A DNA stretch of 64,000 nt from a virus (IMGVR_UViG_3300028603_000001:1-64000); one strand, 5' to 3'. Numbered from the stretch's first letter, positions 485 to 41,387 are shown. Made by a program: numbers and translations. The notes: generated from the sequence alone by a model not told the origin.

Positions 485-584
485 ATTTTATGGTTGATTA
501 TTATTTTCTTGTATCTGTATTTGTGTTCGTATTTATGTTTCTTTTGCTTCTTTCCTCGCGCACAAAACAAACATATACATATGA

Positions 585-659
585 TGGCAAGGGTAAGAGG
601 AATTGAACCCCTATCAGTAGTTTTGGAGGCTACCGCTTTACCTTTTAAGCTATACCCCT
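585..659 (-). tRNA. tRNA-Trp(CCA)
   Basis: AGGGGTA acceptor; loop CT-CCA-AA; GCCA end. Confidence 0.92.
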
Positions 660-4077: not shown

Positions 4078-4911
4078 TTATACTCGTACTACATTAAACA
4101 TATCTTTAATATCACTCATCAAATCATATCTATCAACAGCTGTTGATGACCTAGCAAATTTCTTTTCTACAAGGTCTGCGTACATAGTTGCAGCTCCGTC
4201 ATCTCCCATGTAAAATTCGTTCCATTCTTTGGTTGATAAAATATCTTTTACACACAATTGTTTAATAGCTAAGTTATCAAATGATACAACATCAAACCAG
4301 TTTTCATCTAAAATATTTATTAAGTTATTTTTTAGTATGGAAATTTTAGCTTCAATTTCATCTGAAAGCTTCTTATATAAATCAGCACCGCGTCTAAACA
4401 CTTTGTACCCTAAGATTAAAATCTTAAAATTATTGCCAGATAATTTTTTTAAATCTTCAATATTAATTAAGCCAGCTATAATATGAAGTACTGCGTTTGG
4501 AAATTGTTTTACTTGTTCTATAAATTTATCATCAATATGCATTACAGATATGCCTAAGCCATAAATTAATTTATTATCAACTAAATGCTTAACAAAATCT
4601 AAATTTTTTTGTAAATGAGTTTGGTTGATAGTCATTGAAGGAATTAATTTTAATTTTTTACATTTCTCTAGAAATGAAATTAGGTCTGGGTGTTCTAATG
4701 GATTACCTCCGCCAATAGCTAATTCTGTAAAAGGATGTAATCTGTCAATAAATTCTAGATTCATAATATCGCCATGTAATCCATCTTTTGTTGAATTTTC
4801 ATGGCAATTACTGACTAACACACCATTGCAGAAATAGTTATGGTTATCAGCCACTTCTACATTGTATACATAACCATTATAATCAACTTCTGTTATTGTT
4901 TTAATTTTCAT
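4078..4911 (-). CDS. Radical SAM protein, C-terminal part, preceded by a 35-aa split-intein C-half (IntC, 4807-4911)
   Basis: Starts MKIKT at 4911 with AAAGGA SD; intein blocks F/G VYNVEVADNHNYFCNGVLVSN|C; then CHENS and the GGGNPL SAM-binding motif. Confidence 0.9.
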   Translation of the reverse strand: MKIKTITEVDYNGYVYNVEVADNHNYFCNGVLVSNCHENSTKDGLHGDIMNLEFIDRLHPFTELAIGGGNPLEHPDLISFLEKCKKLKLIPSMTINQTHLQKNLDFVKHLVDNKLIYGLGISVMHIDDKFIEQVKQFPNAVLHIIAGLINIEDLKKLSGNNFKILILGYKVFRRGADLYKKLSDEIEAKISILKNNLINILDENWFDVVSFDNLAIKQLCVKDILSTKEWNEFYMGDDGAATMYADLVEKKFARSSTAVDRYDLMSDIKDMFNVVRV

Positions 4912-5857
4912 TTTGTATATCCTTTCTAAACTGACGGAAATGTTGATCGACTTCCGCGTGACATCTTTCACAAAGAACTTGGGCTAAATCGGTGTTTTCT
5001 TCATGATATTTTCTTAATTCATATATTAAAGAATCGAATTCTGCAGTGCCTACCCTTAGCTTAGATGGGGCAGTTCCAATTTTACGGCAACATTCAAAGA
5101 AAATATCTTTATATTTTCTTTTATGGTGATGAACCATCAATTTACCCTTATCATCGCCACATAATTCGCATTTGAAGTGAGCTCGTTTAAGCTCGCGGTC
5201 TTTCCATTTATATAGATATACTCTTGCAACTTCTTTGATATTAATATAAGCTTTCTTTGGTAGGTTGAATCGATTCTTCTTGCGGGTCTCTATGCTCTTT
5301 AAAACTACTTCTGGGCGCTTCATTGGATTATTAGCTAACATTTTATCTGATAGTAATTTTGAGACCTCTTCTTTAGTTCTTTTTGGACGAGATCTTTTTA
5401 ATAATATCTCAGCTTGTCGTTCTGGTGTAAGGCGTGCTTGTGATGGATTATTCAATTTCATTTTATTAGCGATATTTTGAAAATGTTGTTTTTTACATTC
5501 ATCGCAAGTTTTATACTTAATTATTTTAGATGTTTTTGTAACTTTAGCTTCTCTAGTGCCCAATAATTTGCTGCAACGTCTACATACTAATTGTTGAGTT
5601 ATAATTTGATATTTTGGTCTGCGCAACTCCATTTTGCATTTATGGCACATATTATGGTATTCACCTTGTTGTTGCTTACTTATTTCATAGGAGTCACCGC
5701 AACGACTGCAAACACGAACTTCTACTTTATTATAAAGTTCTCGACTTTTAAATAAGCGATGTTTGTGCCGACATTCTGGTTTAGTGCAGCTAACATTATC
5801 TTTTCGTGTAGCTTCATATTCTTCTCCACAATAGCGACATATTCTTATTTCTTTCAT
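4901..5857 (-). CDS. Free-standing HNH homing endonuclease with N-terminal Zn-finger repeats
   Basis: Multiple CxxC; C-terminal CELCG...LMVHH...VLCERCHAEV. Confidence 0.85.
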   Translation of the reverse strand: MKEIRICRYCGEEYEATRKDNVSCTKPECRHKHRLFKSRELYNKVEVRVCSRCGDSYEISKQQQGEYHNMCHKCKMELRRPKYQIITQQLVCRRCSKLLGTREAKVTKTSKIIKYKTCDECKKQHFQNIANKMKLNNPSQARLTPERQAEILLKRSRPKRTKEEVSKLLSDKMLANNPMKRPEVVLKSIETRKKNRFNLPKKAYINIKEVARVYLYKWKDRELKRAHFKCELCGDDKGKLMVHHHKRKYKDIFFECCRKIGTAPSKLRVGTAEFDSLIYELRKYHEENTDLAQVLCERCHAEVDQHFRQFRKDIQNEN

Positions 5858-5858
5858 A

Positions 5859-6305
5859 TTAAATAGTTAGTAAATCATCATCTAATGTTAATTTTGCAGC
5901 TTCTACATAACCCCTGTTTTGAGTAAATATTTTATGGTTAGGTGTGCACTCTATAGTGCGATTATCTGCTAAAGTAATTTTTATTAGTTTTCCGCTATAT
6001 TTTCTTTTATACGTTTTAACTACTTCCTTTATTTCCAAATCTGCTTTCTCTTCATTATAGGATAATAGCTCAAGACCAGGTTGAATACCGCGAATAGCTT
6101 TTGATTTACTGTCTCCTTTAATTAATTTAGCATTAGGAGGGAAACAGAATATACACCCCATATCACATTTATTTGTAATTTTTAGATCCATTGATTCTGG
6201 AAAATCAGCTCTAAAATGATCTAAATCATTTTCTCTGATTTTTGTCCCATCTGAAAATAGTGTTACTGTATAATTACCATTTTTATATTTTCCCAATAAC
6301 TTCAT
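5859..6305 (-). CDS. Radical SAM protein, N-terminal part, fused to a 95-aa split-intein N-half (IntN, 5862-6146)
   Basis: KITNKCDMGCIF|CFPPNAKL (block A) ... IECTPNHKIF (block B TxxH) ... AAKLTLDDDLL*. Confidence 0.9.
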   Translation of the reverse strand: MKLLGKYKNGNYTVTLFSDGTKIRENDLDHFRADFPESMDLKITNKCDMGCIFCFPPNAKLIKGDSKSKAIRGIQPGLELLSYNEEKADLEIKEVVKTYKRKYSGKLIKITLADNRTIECTPNHKIFTQNRGYVEAAKLTLDDDLLTI

Positions 6306-35633: not shown

Positions 35634-36095
35634 TTATCTATGACCACTTATATGTTCAAAAGCTACTAAATCTGCTTTTATAAGTTTTAATAATTTTAAA
35701 CACGGGATTAGATCATAAGTTTTATAATAAGTATTCAGCACTCTAGTTATTTCTTCTGCTCTACTGTGTTTTAAAAACATCTTATTATCATCTAATTTTT
35801 TAGCAAAAAGTAAAATTTGTAAATTTAAAGATGATAAAGTTATTAAAGCTTCAATTGGATTAGTTAATTCTTCTTTTACTAGATTAATATATAAATTAGA
35901 TCTTTTTTTGTTATAATTTTTGCGTAATAATTCATAAAAAACTGATACATCAAATTGCCGATTATCATTTATATATTTTAATACATCATATGGAATTACT
36001 TCTGATTTTAGTAGTTTAGCTATATATGTATCAACATTTTTTCCGCTTTCTTCTATATCAGCAAGCAATAATACTAAATCGTTTTTTGTTAGCAT
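35634..36095 (-). CDS. Hypothetical protein downstream of portal
   Basis: ORF with SD. Confidence 0.75.
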   Translation of the reverse strand: MLTKNDLVLLLADIEESGKNVDTYIAKLLKSEVIPYDVLKYINDNRQFDVSVFYELLRKNYNKKRSNLYINLVKEELTNPIEALITLSSLNLQILLFAKKLDDNKMFLKHSRAEEITRVLNTYYKTYDLIPCLKLLKLIKADLVAFEHISGHR

Positions 36096-36124: not shown

Positions 36125-38002
36125 TTAGTCTTCAATACTATCTAACCCTAGCTCTTCAGGAGTTGGAAGGTAAGAATCTTCTTCTTCATCTTCGGCTGTT
36201 TCATTTAAAAGGTCTTTAGTTTCTTCTTGATGGAAAGATTCTAATGGTGCTAGTTCTGCTTCAGGTTCAGATAAGTCTAATCCTGAATCTGATTCAAAAT
36301 CAATATCTTCTGAGTTGTTATCATCAGCTTTTTCATTATTTTCTTCTTCTTTAGCTTTTAATATATCAATATAATCATGAATATAACTAATTACTTCTGG
36401 GTTACCAATAACGTCTCCTAATAATGATTTAAGTATTTCTAATCTTATAATTTTATCTTCAATATCACTGAGTTGTTGCATTATATCACTAATATATCTT
36501 AGTCTATTATCATTATTAGCTCTTCTATCTAATTCTTCTTGTGTAACAGGTGCTTGCATTCTAACTCTAAACTTATTTACATAGCTATCTAAGCCTCTGT
36601 CGATTAAGAATAGGTTTATAACATCAATCATCATTTGGCATAAAATATTTTGAATATTTTTTATTGATTTACCATATCGGCTAGATAATATTGTCAAAGA
36701 TGTTCCACCGTTAAATCCAGCACCGTCATCTGTGAACCCAAAGAATTGTTTTGGAACTTTTAAATTACCGAATAATTTGTCTCTGAAATATTCAATATCA
36801 ACTAAAGATTTAGGATCAAAATCGCCACCAAGTGTTGTCGCACTTATTGTTCCCTGTGTTCCATGAACTGGTACATATATGGTATTTTCAATAGGTGCTG
36901 GGTTAGTATATTCAGCCATTCCTGTTCCTACATCTAAAGCAGTTTTTTGTTCTAGCTTATCTTTTAATCTTTGCATAAATACCTGAACTTGATTTTTAGG
37001 CATATCACCTACATCTACGGTAATTATACGTGTTACTGCTGATTTTGTAACTCGGTTTAGTAAAGCAGACATCTCGAGTAATGTTAGTTGTCGCCAATTT
37101 CTAAATGAATTATATAGAATTGATTGACCTCGTTTAACACTGTATGTGCTTGTCATACTATCACTTTTATTTTGAGCTTCTTCTGACAATGAGTCTAAAA
37201 ATATATCTACGGTTTCGGGTTGACGTTGACTAGTTGTTTCTAAACATCCATGAACAAAAGACATAGCATCAAATATCTCAACATCGCTTTGTTTCATCTT
37301 GTATCGCGTTATGTAATTAAACATATTATCATTATGTTGTTGAATAACTCGTGTTGCTGCTTTTATATATCCTTGTGTTTTACCAAATTTTTGTAAATCA
37401 AACATCTCTCCTGGATTATCAACCATTTGAATATAAGGAATGTATTTGTCATTATCTCCATATAATTTTAATTTAACCTCTTCTGTTAAAGGTTCATTGG
37501 TTTTACGAATAATAGATTCATTTAATTTATTCGTTTTAGGGTTATTTTTAAACAATAAATCTTCTTCAACATCGGATTTTCGGAATAAGCGTAAATAAAC
37601 ATCTCCATAGGTAACTAAACAATACGCCCATTGATATAGATGCTTATCAACATTTAATGATTCAAGTAACCATGAAGTATAATTTAAAACTCGAGCATCA
37701 TTAGCTTCTATCCACATTATATCACCATTATCATTTGTTTGCACAACATCTTCAGCATAAGTTTCAAGAACAGCAGCAATAATTGTGTCTTGAGTCATGG
37801 CGTCTATTAGTTGATAAGCTTGTTCTCTGTTTTGCGCACTTTGGGTTAATGCGTCTATAGATGATAAATCTAATGTTCCAACTTGCGCAGAATCAAGAAT
37901 ATTGTCTATAAATGTTTTCTCTGTATCAATACCAATTTCTGGGGTTGTTGCAGATATTGGTTTAACTTTAACTTCATTTAAATTAATTTTATTATCGTTC
38001 AT
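36125..38002 (-). CDS. Portal protein (T4 gp20-like)
   Basis: GQSIL...WRQL.LLE...R...VDVGDMP; DIEYFRDKLF..LKVPK; adjacent to terminase. Confidence 0.92.
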   Translation of the reverse strand: MNDNKINLNEVKVKPISATTPEIGIDTEKTFIDNILDSAQVGTLDLSSIDALTQSAQNREQAYQLIDAMTQDTIIAAVLETYAEDVVQTNDNGDIMWIEANDARVLNYTSWLLESLNVDKHLYQWAYCLVTYGDVYLRLFRKSDVEEDLLFKNNPKTNKLNESIIRKTNEPLTEEVKLKLYGDNDKYIPYIQMVDNPGEMFDLQKFGKTQGYIKAATRVIQQHNDNMFNYITRYKMKQSDVEIFDAMSFVHGCLETTSQRQPETVDIFLDSLSEEAQNKSDSMTSTYSVKRGQSILYNSFRNWRQLTLLEMSALLNRVTKSAVTRIITVDVGDMPKNQVQVFMQRLKDKLEQKTALDVGTGMAEYTNPAPIENTIYVPVHGTQGTISATTLGGDFDPKSLVDIEYFRDKLFGNLKVPKQFFGFTDDGAGFNGGTSLTILSSRYGKSIKNIQNILCQMMIDVINLFLIDRGLDSYVNKFRVRMQAPVTQEELDRRANNDNRLRYISDIMQQLSDIEDKIIRLEILKSLLGDVIGNPEVISYIHDYIDILKAKEEENNEKADDNNSEDIDFESDSGLDLSEPEAELAPLESFHQEETKDLLNETAEDEEEDSYLPTPEELGLDSIED

Positions 38003-38011
38003 ATTTCTCCT

Positions 38012-39517
38012 TTATAGTATGATTATATCATCATACATAAAATAATCTTCAGTTTTCTTTTGGGCATCCGATGGGTGCATCCGATCTGGTTTTAATCTCC
38101 CATTAATCATTTTTAACTCTTCTTCCATGTTTAATGTTAATTGCTTAATATCATCTGAGAAACTATTATCTTCATTTATCTGCAATAACTGTTCAGCGCT
38201 TTCACCATATTCATAAGCGAACTGTTCAGCATGCTTACTTGCGTTAAATATTGATCCACAAACAGCATCGCAGACATCTTTCGCTCCACCGCTCGGGTGA
38301 TCTATTTTACCAGTATTGATATTACGCTCTAGATTAATTATCTGATGTATAAGCATCCTGTCATCGTACATCTCTAATCTTTTTTCATATATAGTTGATT
38401 TGAAATATTGGTAAGGAACACACACATGGTTTGTATCAACACGATCGACCGATAACACAGAATATGGATAACCTTTAGCTCTTAACGTCTCACCAGTATC
38501 ATAAGATTGATATGTATCTGTTGTTATCCCTCTTATATTAAAACCTTTGCTTTTTAACCAGTAAATAAAGTTTCTATTTTTTTCAAAACTTATATGTCTC
38601 CCTCTTGGAGCTTTAATACTAACACTAAAAGCTAAAGAATAAAACAAATCTTTACTTTGGTCTAAATCTATTTGAGAATGTTTTTTTCCTCGTATAAATA
38701 TTCCTGCGATTCCAGTCATATCTCCTGAATAAGACATATCTAAATGTATAAATAGTGGTTTATATCTTAAAGCTGGGTCAATTTTATCTAGATCAAAGAA
38801 ATTATAATATTGAACTTCTGCATCATCTGGTCCATCACCGATTTCTAATATTTCACGACTGAATGGATTTTTAATTCTGTCTGTTACATTTTCAACCGCA
38901 GCAGCTCCGTTTATATATTTAGAAATGCTTGATGCTGAGATACCTGCAAAATCACATAAAGCTCTATCTATATCATCTAGAAAATCTGGTTTAAAATCTA
39001 TTGGTACATTGATTATTTCACTATACCCTTTTTCTCTATATGCCTCAATATCTTCATCATCTTTCATTACAACAGAATCTAAAAATTTATTTCCTAAAGC
39101 AACTCTAAATGTTGTTTCTGAATAAGTTCCAGGTGGTTTAACTTCCCAAACACTTCCTTCTGAAATATAAACATTATCTTTCTCTGAAATAAGTTTTTTT
39201 CTCATATGTTCTTCAAGAAAAGATTTATCGCTTCTTTTTGATGAAGCCAAGACTAGTAAGGTAGGATTTTTACCACGGTGTACAAATCTTGTTTTCATAC
39301 CTCCGATAGCTGTATCAATCATGTCATTGGCTTTTTTCTTTTGTTTTTCGATATCTTGATTTCTTTGGAATGAAACCTCGTCAAAAAAGCAGTTATGTGA
39401 ACATATATACGCAGTATTTGTTTTGATAAAGAAGTTGTTAAATGGATTAGCATTTATAACATCATAATATTTTTTAGGGGCATCTAAGTGATTTATCTTT
39501 ATACTTTTAATTCTCAT
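38012..39517 (-). CDS. terL: Terminase large subunit, C-terminal part, preceded by a 42-aa IntC (39392-39517)
   Basis: MRIKSIK...YYDVINANP.NNF...SHN|CFFDE (Walker B); nuclease motifs HLDMS..GD and KIDHP..GAKDVCDAV. Confidence 0.9.
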   Translation of the reverse strand: MRIKSIKINHLDAPKKYYDVINANPFNNFFIKTNTAYICSHNCFFDEVSFQRNQDIEKQKKKANDMIDTAIGGMKTRFVHRGKNPTLLVLASSKRSDKSFLEEHMRKKLISEKDNVYISEGSVWEVKPPGTYSETTFRVALGNKFLDSVVMKDDEDIEAYREKGYSEIINVPIDFKPDFLDDIDRALCDFAGISASSISKYINGAAAVENVTDRIKNPFSREILEIGDGPDDAEVQYYNFFDLDKIDPALRYKPLFIHLDMSYSGDMTGIAGIFIRGKKHSQIDLDQSKDLFYSLAFSVSIKAPRGRHISFEKNRNFIYWLKSKGFNIRGITTDTYQSYDTGETLRAKGYPYSVLSVDRVDTNHVCVPYQYFKSTIYEKRLEMYDDRMLIHQIINLERNINTGKIDHPSGGAKDVCDAVCGSIFNASKHAEQFAYEYGESAEQLLQINEDNSFSDDIKQLTLNMEEELKMINGRLKPDRMHPSDAQKKTEDYFMYDDIIIL

Positions 39518-41387
39518 TTTTATATCCCCATATTAAATTTTCAATTATATATTTAAATTTTTTAATTGTGCGTTTAGAATATCCTTTATTTTCAATATTT
39601 CTAATGGCTGAACCTGAAATATCGGGGTAACCATTCTCTTTTAGATATGTTACTAAATCATTTCTACACTCAAATCTAATATTATTAAAAATATAATATT
39701 TGGTAGCGTTAGTGTTATTACCACCGGTTCTTAAATAACCTTTTCCATACATTGAATTTTTACAACCCTTGTGTGCTTCTGATTTACGCAACATAGCATC
39801 TTTATCATTATAATAATTGGTCATATTGTGAGCTTTTCTAGCTGTAATATTTCCTTTTTCCCATCCATTGGGTATCTCTAAGGATTTATCAATAAATTTT
39901 ACTAGCTCACCATTGTTTATTGCTATTTTATCTTTAAGTGTCTGATATCCGCTATGATTTAGCTTTTTAGCTGATGAGCTCATCTTTGTTTTTGTTTCAT
40001 CAGACAATATTTTACCTCTATTCCCAACGCTTATTTTAGCTTTAGTGTCAGGGCTCAAACGCTTGCCTCGGTTTATATCAGATAATTTTTTACGGTGTCC
40101 AGCTGTTTTAGGTCTTCCTTTAAGCGCAGCACTAATGCGAGCTCTTGAAACCTCACCTAGATCCCCACCTTGTCCACCATCTGCAATATTATATCCGATA
40201 GTAGAATCATTAGAATTGAACTTTTTAATATATTCCTTCTCACCGTTATTTAAATCATTTTTGGAAGCATAAAGCTGCAGAATTTCGCATTTGAAATTAT
40301 TTATACCATATTTTTTTACGGCTTTATTTAAAGCAAAACCACTTCCTAAATAATTTGAATCTAAAAATGCTTTTTTATGTTGACCGATATATATCTTTCC
40401 ATTAATCAAATTTGTTGTTTTATAGACATACCCATATGGGATAAAATCTAATATCTCATCTGCTTCAGTTAACTTTTGAGCTTCTTTATAAGAACCATCT
40501 ACTAACCTAAATCTATGAGTTGGGGTGCATTTTATAATGCTACCATCTTCTAGTTCTATTTCATATTCGATGCTAGATTCTGCTGTTTGTTTAACGGTAC
40601 ATTCATCGCTTATTATAAATTTATGATCATCTGATAAAGTGGGAACTTTAATTTTCTTGTCTAATAAATCCTCAATTTTGAATGTTCCATTTGTTGTTAA
40701 AATTTCGGTGTTTCCTTCAAGACAAAAATATATAGGCAAACCAATTAAATCATCAGCTTGTGAACCTATTTTAATATCAACAGCTTCTTGGTTATTGAAT
40801 TTTTGTGGTACCCATACTTTATTTGTTCTTCCTTCAATTGTTCCATGCTTTAAAAACCAAGGACTAGATTGAATAGTGTTTTGAAATTTAGCTATACCTA
40901 TTTCTTCTGCTAAGTCTTTTTTGATATTCATAAACGCAAAAACAAGCTTTTCAGTAGGTTTTAAGTGAAAATAAGCTATTGGATCTTTTAAGCATAATAC
41001 CCTGTGGAGAAGATAAGCAGCTATTAATACAGCTATCTCTGTTTTTCCACGACCACGAGACCCAGAGAGGATAGCGTTATTGATTGAAGTTGTCAAATTA
41101 TCTGGGAATATTTTTACTAGCTCTTCTCTCCAATATGGGTATAATTTAGATTTACCTTCACTATCATGCCATGCGTTTCCTAAATATTCATAATTATCTA
41201 CAAAGGTTAAGATATCAACCGGAATTTCATTGTAATCTTCAAGTAATAGTTTGTTTAACTGCTCTGATGTACCTTCTTTAGAATACTCTTCTAAAATAGC
41301 AAGAGCTAACTCTTTTTCTTCTGGTGATAATGATTCTAGCAAAGATAGATCCAGATTTTGGTTATTTATATTTGTTTTGCTGACCAA
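39507..41387 (-). CDS. terL: Terminase large subunit, N-terminal part, fused to IntN (from 40724) and an in-frame GIY-YIG/NUMOD3 endonuclease
   Basis: Walker A GSRGRGKT; IYF|CLEGNTEI; IKCTPTHRF; then GYVYKTTN...IYIGQH, YLGSG, GYNIADGG, ETKxKMS repeats. Confidence 0.9.
   Translation of the reverse strand: MVSKTNINNQNLDLSLLESLSPEEKELALAILEEYSKEGTSEQLNKLLLEDYNEIPVDILTFVDNYEYLGNAWHDSEGKSKLYPYWREELVKIFPDNLTTSINNAILSGSRGRGKTEIAVLIAAYLLHRVLCLKDPIAYFHLKPTEKLVFAFMNIKKDLAEEIGIAKFQNTIQSSPWFLKHGTIEGRTNKVWVPQKFNNQEAVDIKIGSQADDLIGLPIYFCLEGNTEILTTNGTFKIEDLLDKKIKVPTLSDDHKFIISDECTVKQTAESSIEYEIELEDGSIIKCTPTHRFRLVDGSYKEAQKLTEADEILDFIPYGYVYKTTNLINGKIYIGQHKKAFLDSNYLGSGFALNKAVKKYGINNFKCEILQLYASKNDLNNGEKEYIKKFNSNDSTIGYNIADGGQGGDLGEVSRARISAALKGRPKTAGHRKKLSDINRGKRLSPDTKAKISVGNRGKILSDETKTKMSSSAKKLNHSGYQTLKDKIAINNGELVKFIDKSLEIPNGWEKGNITARKAHNMTNYYNDKDAMLRKSEAHKGCKNSMYGKGYLRTGGNNTNATKYYIFNNIRFECRNDLVTYLKENGYPDISGSAIRNIENKGYSKRTIKKFKYIIENLIWGYKNEN

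Follow-up and report, generated by a model that had tools for sequence, protein, structure and literature searches.

The gene for the terminase large subunit (TerL) of the phage represented by IMGVR_UViG_3300028603_000001 is carried in two pieces, and the 1333-bp insert that separates its coding halves is very probably a selfish class-1 split intein, fused on one side to a homing endonuclease, which would be removed by protein trans-splicing and spread by homing. The sequence analysed, called the window below, comprises nucleotides 1–64,000 of a virus record that is complete at 180.8 kb, has direct terminal repeats and contains ~30% G+C. The argument draws on the anatomy of the locus and its conservation, on the occurrence of empty, mini and split alleles of the same site, on the conservation of catalytic residues and on a predicted complex between the N-terminal and C-terminal fragments of the intein (IntN and IntC).

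The gene was found as two overlapping open reading frames (ORFs), whose coordinates are collected in Table 1. ORF A encodes the N-extein, IntN and a GIY-YIG/NUMOD3 endonuclease in a single frame that then stops, and ORF B encodes IntC and the C-extein in another frame. This arrangement had been proposed in an earlier note made by a model from the sequence alone, and its coordinates and lengths all proved correct: the first ORF, with its 221-aa N-extein, is borne out by the ORF listing and by Pfam, which matches SegE_GIY-YIG, NUMOD3 (25.3 bits, cut-off 20.4) and Intein_splicing, and the second, with a 42-aa IntC preceded by a GGGGA Shine-Dalgarno sequence, by the sequence itself and by at least 46 protein clusters that open with IntC. 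A Walker A loop, GSRGRGKT, whose residues are invariant in the alignment, lies at about residues 108–116 of ORF A. Block A of the intein begins at Cys222 (CLEGNT...), directly after ...IYF, and the DNA at the junction of IntN and nuclease contains neither a stop codon nor an in-frame ATG, GTG or TTG. The C-terminal boundary of IntN was placed by the positions at which the IntN ORF stops in a related contig (L010). The TAA of ORF A sits in the Ile-Lys codons of the Met-Arg-Ile-Lys start of ORF B, and after CFFDE the C-extein continues with the remainder of the ATPase domain followed by the nuclease domain of the terminase. No terminator-like sites were found on the coding strand between ORFs A and B. 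A promoter scan of the locus was set aside as uninformative, since the number of sites equalled that in shuffled sequence.

Intein-less relatives read ...IYFCFFDEVSF... in one ORF. They include L006 (83% identity), L036 and the 676-aa proteins P0209–P0215, together with many further one-ORF, empty-site proteins of 667–702 aa and L008, which carries Ser at position +1. The predicted splice product of the window (221 + 459 = 680 aa, joined as IYF-CFFDE), with the length and junction given in the earlier note, matches these proteins. An AlphaFold model of the intein-less P0209 matches the TerL of HK97 (E 5e-13), T4 gp17 and the TerL of D6E across both domains, the match covering the N-terminal ASCE ATPase with its Walker A and Walker B motifs and the C-terminal RNase H-like nuclease; by sequence, P0209 matches no Pfam family, and a PDB sequence search with the intein-less TerL was also empty. 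When ORF B was used as a tblastn query, 348 phage records were matched, and the best of those listed are mostly annotated as terminase large subunit. The Walker B residues D224 and E225 are invariant in the TerL alignment, as are D46 and E47 of ORF B, and because both the model and the alignment place the insertion point within the strand that ends in this invariant Asp-Glu, the description of the gene as split at Walker B is justified. GenBank annotates the two halves in relatives as "hypothetical", "intein splicing region protein" or "putative terminase". A blastn search of GenBank phages with the locus returned just short GIY-YIG fragments and no close cultured relative.

The residues expected of a splicing domain are conserved on both sides of the break. 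Cys222, T288 and H291 of ORF A are invariant in 42 aligned relatives, as are D19, H41, N42 and C43 of ORF B in 42 sequences; in a wider alignment of 52 sequences the T288 position is Thr in 49 (Ser in the others) and the His is present in all 52. The model of IntN resembles the IntN chain of Npu DnaE (4qfq_A; Foldseek E 1.3e-4). A predicted complex between IntN (residues 212–318) and IntC (residues 1–55) scored 0.65 (best control 0.00), a level attained by 58 of 80 solved complexes and by 2 of 110 mismatched pairs; solved split-intein structures exist, so that the pass may reflect likeness to them. At least 90% of the contacts are shared between runs, the pLDDT (predicted local distance difference test) of the partners is at least 67, and all 42 residues of IntC lie in the predicted interface. 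With its Cys1, TxxH motif, block F Asp, His-Asn pair, Cys+1 and predicted excision, the insert is, as judged by its sequence, a class-1 naturally split intein, and the invariant residues together with the position of the insertion in a strand ending in Asp-Glu uphold the earlier claim of a genuine split intein in the Walker B strand of TerL. Because IntC and the C-extein form a separately initiated ORF and the intein is split inside that strand, functional TerL should need protein trans-splicing, a dependence also put forward in the earlier note.

It could be supposed that no splicing takes place and that the intein halves act as a non-covalent clamp for the TerL fragments. There is a precedent in the NrdA of phage Aeh1, which is split by a homing endonuclease and is reported to assemble non-covalently through interaction domains (PMC3045599). 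Such a clamp is very improbable for the TerL element, in which all residues for class-1 splicing are invariant, a β-strand of the ATPase core (Walker B) is interrupted and the core would have to accommodate ~450 additional residues; moreover, the same intein also occurs as contiguous mini versions, from which TerL can be obtained only by splicing.

The two-ORF junction contains a run of five A residues (39517–39521), and losing one A would fuse both frames, which would suit a sequencing or assembly frameshift disguising a single gene that encodes a contiguous intein with a GIY-YIG insertion. An independent assembly, from an unrelated sequencing run on another sample, has the identical two-ORF junction and differs at 83 positions in 4081 nt (97.97% identity, 0 gaps); this comparison excludes the indel restoring one ORF for which the earlier note had allowed. 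The 11-nt overlap recurs in L027, L028, L029, L030 and L032, and in L027, L028/L029 and L030 it is kept although ORF A is only 35–62% identical. Three relatives have junctions lacking the A-run, namely L030 (AAC AAG GAT GAA), L010 (TAATG) and L034 (TAA-t-ATG), and all of them keep two ORFs. The ATG of ORF B and its Shine-Dalgarno sequence are conserved, the equivalents in relatives reading GGGG, GGAGG or GGGAG.

A survey of a 5.8-billion-protein collection, of which the 120 best clusters were listed, gave the same picture. IntN and GIY-YIG are joined in one ORF of ~610–650 aa with no IntC after them in 83 of the 120 listed clusters, and IntN and HNH are joined in one ORF without IntC, on the same NUMOD/C-terminal scaffold, in 9 of the 120. 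The fused-ORF clusters have a common C-terminal tail, W-x-x-K-[ND]-E-[ND], and at least 46 clusters of ~500 aa open with a 42-aa IntC beginning MKIK. A contiguous intein with a full nuclease was not found among relatives of at least 1097 aa, which comprised mini-inteins and one deletion derivative only. Because the near-identical assembly is free of gaps and the layout, shared by dozens of clusters, recurs at junctions without a homopolymer, the two-ORF layout is, on this comparison, genuine, and a frameshift error is barely conceivable. One 94%-identical contig (L033, protein P0002) was not used, as it is full of short ORFs and is probably error-rich or decayed.

A biological route to one polypeptide would be programmed +1 frameshifting or transcriptional slippage, giving a contiguous, cis-splicing precursor and leaving the separate IntC ORF as secondary. 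The junction reads TAT AAA AAT G in the window, L028 and L032, and tRNA-Lys could slip +1 on it. As the general explanation this is highly unlikely: L030, L010 and L034 have no slippery run and their layout is unchanged, the Shine-Dalgarno sequence and an ATG at the first residue of IntC are conserved in at least 46 clusters, and the richness in A is accounted for by dual coding of Lys-Asn-Glu-Asn-stop and Met-Lys-Ile-Lys. A group I or group II intron carrying the nuclease was also considered, but no Rfam family, of introns or otherwise, was matched between positions 36000 and 43000 at E ≤ 0.1.

The nuclease fused to IntN has a head that aligns with the catalytic domain of I-TevI by sequence (E 0.0016) and resembles it in fold, with Foldseek template modelling (TM) scores of 0.69–0.71 against 1mk0/1ln0. 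Residues Y322, Y333, E383 and N400 correspond to Y6, Y17, E75 and N90 of I-TevI, and each is retained in at least 95% of 52 sequences. The YIG motif is followed by a semi-conserved patch of His, Lys and Arg, in which positions 339–341 vary and Lys is one of the residues found at 339–340. The C-terminal domain of the nuclease is predicted with a confident fold (pLDDT ~88–92); in the model that includes the nuclease the predicted TM score is 0.40, so that the placement of domains is unreliable. In the closest pair, 16 synonymous and 18 non-synonymous differing codons were counted in the nuclease, compared with 11/1 and 11/2 in the exteins, and the constraint on the nuclease, as read from these counts, is relaxed, as is usual for homing nucleases, yet not neutral.

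Variants with an HNH head were observed in P0052, P0055, P0057, P0077, P0081, P0089, P0097, P0113 and P0115, in which the NUMOD region, the C-terminal domain and the IntC-overlapping tail remain homologous. The exchange of GIY-YIG for HNH looks like modular swapping of heads on one scaffold. A decayed HNH version is seen in L010, with stop codons in the HNH head, and L009 retains a vestige of the nuclease tail only. The possibility that L010 encodes a free-standing nuclease was rejected, since stop codons precede its 186-aa ORF, which corresponds to the tail of an HNH-type nuclease that has decayed.

The insertion site is found in different states in closely related phages. Nearly the same phage occurs in three of them: empty in L036, with a 444-bp contiguous mini-intein in L035, and with the 1336-bp split intein and nuclease in L034. 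The flanks of these three loci are 96–99% identical, and between the mini and split forms a cassette of ~920 bp is replaced by ~29 unrelated nucleotides. Contiguous mini-inteins of the same intein are ~148 aa long and lie in TerL proteins of ~824 aa. The view that these 148-aa minis (P0123, P0124 and L035) are deletion products of the split form was not retained, for the DNA shows cassette replacement only, which would fit either gain or loss of the nuclease. In P0121, half a GIY-YIG domain is fused in-frame to IntC, and this protein alone clearly derives from the split form by deletion. When allele states were placed on a tree of 115 C-exteins, 48 of them classed as empty, at least 32 changes were needed, and almost identical exteins differ in state. 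This interleaving of the three states on near-identical exteins points to an element that is gained and lost, with active homing.

Further inteins were observed in related TerL proteins. A second insertion site, immediately beyond Walker B and nine residues downstream of the first, follows ...DELNF; a homologous IntN-GIY-YIG fusion is present there in P0116, P0095 and P0122, metagenomic relatives of the HSE3/SP-15-type TerL. In P0095 and P0122 the Walker B site is occupied by a contiguous mini-intein, so that these proteins hold two inteins separated by a few residues. In P0006, P0010 and P0046 the Walker A loop is broken by a LAGLIDADG intein (GRGK|...|TE), and a contiguous mini-intein occurs at ...HPDGG|C, in the C-terminal nuclease domain, in L006:3983–6502 and L008:620–2740. 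The TerL of the window has neither the Walker A LAGLIDADG intein nor the HPDGG|C mini-intein.

Several points weigh against the interpretation of the locus as a trans-splicing, homing element. Splicing, coupled translation, and the activity and target of the nuclease are steps that we infer. ORF B has no Pfam or PHROG family match of its own, and its identity as TerL is indirect, coming from tblastn matches to genes annotated as terminases and from the fold predicted for a relative. In this phage a minor cis-spliced product may arise by a +1 slip on the A5 run of the window. The canonical Arg of the nuclease (R27 of I-TevI) was not located, the alignment being gapped there, and the nuclease has diverged more quickly than the exteins, which would be expected were some copies in decay; L009 and L010 have clearly decayed. 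The last points would suit an element in which splicing is real but the nuclease of this copy is inactive, either decaying or kept for the start signals of IntC, the element being fixed; the relaxed constraint in the closest pair, the missing Arg and the decayed relatives would all be consistent with it. An inactive nuclease is nevertheless unlikely, given that its 311 codons form an intact ORF, that the four I-TevI-like catalytic residues are present and highly conserved, and that empty and occupied alleles alternate on near-identical exteins.

Table 1. Features of the split terL locus and its downstream neighbour in the window (residue numbers refer to the ORF named).
Feature	Position	Strand	Basis
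ORF A, 626 aa, TAA stop: TerL N-extein, IntN and homing endonuclease in-frame	39507..41387	-	ORF listing, Pfam; architecture in at least 92 clusters
TerL N-extein, ORF A residues 1–221, ends ...IYF (first half of Walker B strand)	40725..41387	-	PHROG TerL match
IntN, ORF A residues 222–315, ~94 aa; block A Cys222, block B Thr288-x-x-His291	40443..40724	-	Conservation, Foldseek
Homing endonuclease, ORF A residues 316–626	39510..40442	-	Pfam SegE_GIY-YIG and NUMOD3; PHROG homing endonuclease, E 8e-39
Endonuclease domains: GIY-YIG catalytic; NUMOD3 helices; C-terminal, presumed DNA-binding	ORF A residues ~318–405; ~410–475; ~560–622		
Shine-Dalgarno GGGGA of ORF B, within the conserved Trp-Gly codons of the nuclease, 7 nt upstream of ATG	39525..39529	-	
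11-nt overlap of ORF A and ORF B, ATGAGAATTAA	39507..39517	-	Different frames
ORF B, 501 aa, starts MRIKSIK...: IntC and C-extein	38012..39517	-	
IntC, ORF B residues 1–42, ends ...SHN; block F Asp19, block G His41-Asn42	39392..39517	-	
TerL C-extein, 459 aa and TAA stop; Cys43 (+1) opens CFFDE, with the Walker B Asp-Glu	38012..39391	-	
Whole mobile insert, 1333 bp: IntN, endonuclease and IntC	39392..40724	-	Missing from empty-site alleles L006, L008 and L036
T4-like portal gene, directly downstream of terL	36125..38002	-	Pfam Portal_T4, E 1e-39

The following sequence of events is proposed for the element. Both ORFs would probably be carried on one late transcript, with the 11-nt overlap probably coupling their translation, and IntC with the C-extein would be translated separately from the ATG and Shine-Dalgarno sequence inside the 3' end of the nuclease frame. 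IntN (~94 aa) and IntC (42 aa) would then associate to form the HINT (Hedgehog/intein) fold; an N-S acyl shift at Cys222, transfer of the N-extein to Cys+1 and cyclisation of Asn42 would release the 680-aa TerL with its Walker B strand, IYF-CFFDE, restored. The by-product would be the IntN-endonuclease with IntC bound. The earlier statement that splicing frees the homing nuclease thus holds in part, in that the IntN-nuclease, presumably holding IntC, would leave the N-terminal domain of TerL, but it would not do so as a nuclease alone. Either as this by-product or as the precursor, the endonuclease would cut intein-less terL genes of co-infecting relatives, and repair would copy the insert in, which constitutes homing. 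As a consequence of the fusion, the nuclease would be made only together with TerL, with neither a promoter nor a ribosome-binding site of its own. More speculatively, the nuclease could be held on the N-terminal domain of TerL until IntC arrives, such that trans-splicing would time the cleavage of competing genomes, or localise it, to packaging.

As to its relationship with known systems, the element most resembles the fractured genes, in which a split intein is found with a free-standing gene for a GIY-YIG or Vsr-like endonuclease between its halves, the 3' end of the nuclease gene overlapping the start of IntC by 6–69 bp, and terminase is among the hosts (Dassa, London, Stoddard, Schueler-Furman and Pietrokovski; Dassa 2009, PMC2677866). 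A later split intein with an intervening GIY-YIG gene is AceL NrdHF (PMC7891396). As in fractured genes, the host gene is divided between two adjacent ORFs, the break being at the point of class-1 inteins where an endonuclease is canonically inserted; IntN is ~90–100 aa and IntC ~35–50 aa, the nuclease lies between them and may be a GIY-YIG enzyme with NUMOD, and the nuclease overlaps IntC, here by 11 bp and so within the published range. In fractured genes, however, the nuclease gene stands apart and has a start of its own, and IntN is terminated by a stop that comes from the invading element, whereas in the TerL element the two are fused. The one-sided fused state is not reported in Dassa 2009 or in the other literature covered by the search. 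The association of GIY-YIG enzymes with split inteins is already known in the form of free-standing genes, and the new feature is the covalent fusion of nuclease to IntN.

Like canonical bifunctional LAGLIDADG or HNH inteins, the TerL element has its nuclease in the precursor, under the signals of the host gene and between blocks B and F; unlike them, it is not a single cis-splicing polypeptide, for its first chain terminates behind the nuclease and IntC belongs to another chain. In 2006 it was stated that GIY-YIG enzymes were not known in inteins (PMC1564403), and the non-canonical nucleases in a 2025 survey of actinophage inteins are HNH, Vsr-like, EndoVII-like and antisense LAGLIDADG. The nuclease itself shares with I-TevI and the Seg-type GIY-YIG enzymes of T4-like phages a two-part build, NUMOD3 helices and a separate C-terminal domain, whereas those enzymes are intron-encoded or free-standing and the present one is fused to half an intein and has no recognised equivalent of Arg27. 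Inteins are known from the ATPase motifs of terminases, among them, in mycobacteriophages, the Walker B motif of TerL (TerL1-e; Kelley et al. 2016, PMC5050341), and naturally split TerL inteins are also known (PMC2677866). The mycobacteriophage inteins are contiguous, whereas the one in the window is split, and AceL-TerL and GOS-TerL are split after block A, with a short IntN and a long IntC, in contrast to the canonical split of 94 + 42 aa seen here.

The earlier note had described the element as an intermediate between contiguous and fully fractured inteins. As a description of form this stands, the fusion representing half of step IIIa in the model of Dassa 2009, in which the nuclease is captured in-frame by loss of its flanks (PMC2677866); as a description of a fleeting state it does not, since at least 92 clusters, diverged to as little as ~32% identity, share the architecture, which occurs with either a GIY-YIG or an HNH head and at both of two insertion sites. 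The TerL element thus looks like a variant of the fractured gene, and not a new category, in the form of a stable and widespread design. We would guess that a loop insertion cannot accommodate an elongated, two-part nuclease of the GIY-YIG or HNH/NUMOD kind tethered at both ends, and that this keeps the C side of the intein split. More speculatively, the one-sided fusion could be an evolved, self-sufficient, three-part mobile-element design and not a stage of decay, with the 3' end of the nuclease supplying the ribosome-binding site and start of IntC and the open C side letting elongated nucleases ride; this is possible but doubtful, and is hinted at because the layout is kept through head swaps, at the second site and under different genetic codes.

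Other fractured genes were noted in the same phage. A second, classical one, radical-SAM-like, occupies positions 4078–6305 of the window (minus strand): its N-part ends in IntN (5859–6305), a free-standing 318-aa HNH-type endonuclease ORF lies at 4901–5857, and IntC with the C-part (MKIKTI...) begins at ~4911. The overlap there, of ...QNEN-stop at the end of the nuclease with M-K-I-K, is the same 11 nt as in TerL. The third is an SNF2-like helicase gene at genome positions 106154–109415 (plus strand; L031:1655–4916), split right after the DEVH box by a split intein. The 372-aa GIY-YIG endonuclease between its halves is free-standing, begins at an ATG of its own and has a stop overlapping the ATG of IntC, the classical Dassa-type layout. 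Among GenBank phages, SP-15, LIS04 and HSE3 also have TerL split at the site used in the window, but they lack the nuclease described here. In two of them, the N-terminal part of TerL is further interrupted by endonuclease ORFs of 307–314 aa, found inside the N-extein in Bacillus phage SP-15 (L001:1708–3199) and inside the coding region of IntN in Listeria phage LIS04 (L002:1769–3892). The TerL pieces of SP-15 and LIS04 are annotated as unrelated genes, and no Rfam intron was found at gathering score in the SP-15, LIS04 or HSE3 loci.

The genetic code also varies within the phage clade, because TGA is a sense codon in some relatives and a stop codon in the window. In L027, L034, L035 and L036, TGA occupies 6–7 of the ~7 Trp positions in the TerL genes, among them the Trp that is conserved in the nuclease tail, and the use of code 4 approximately doubles coding capacity in these relatives. 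The TerL genes of the window, L028, L030 and L032 use TGG only, and 7 of the 44 long ORFs of the window end in TGA.

The element fills a gap in the model of the union of endonuclease and intein: the half-captured state, predicted in outline, is found as a large, conserved and apparently mobile family, and covalent attachment of GIY-YIG and HNH/NUMOD nucleases to an intein is unreported in the literature searched. This is of interest to research on inteins and homing endonucleases as well as to phage annotation. The dozens of diverged natural split inteins of 94 + 42 aa might serve as orthogonal tools in protein ligation, and their nucleases as new site-specific enzymes. The coexistence of empty, mini and nuclease-bearing alleles in almost identical phages provides a natural system for the homing cycle. 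For the phages themselves, a clade with genomes of ~80–215 kb, the sequences suggest that the packaging motor, an essential late enzyme, would depend on protein trans-splicing.

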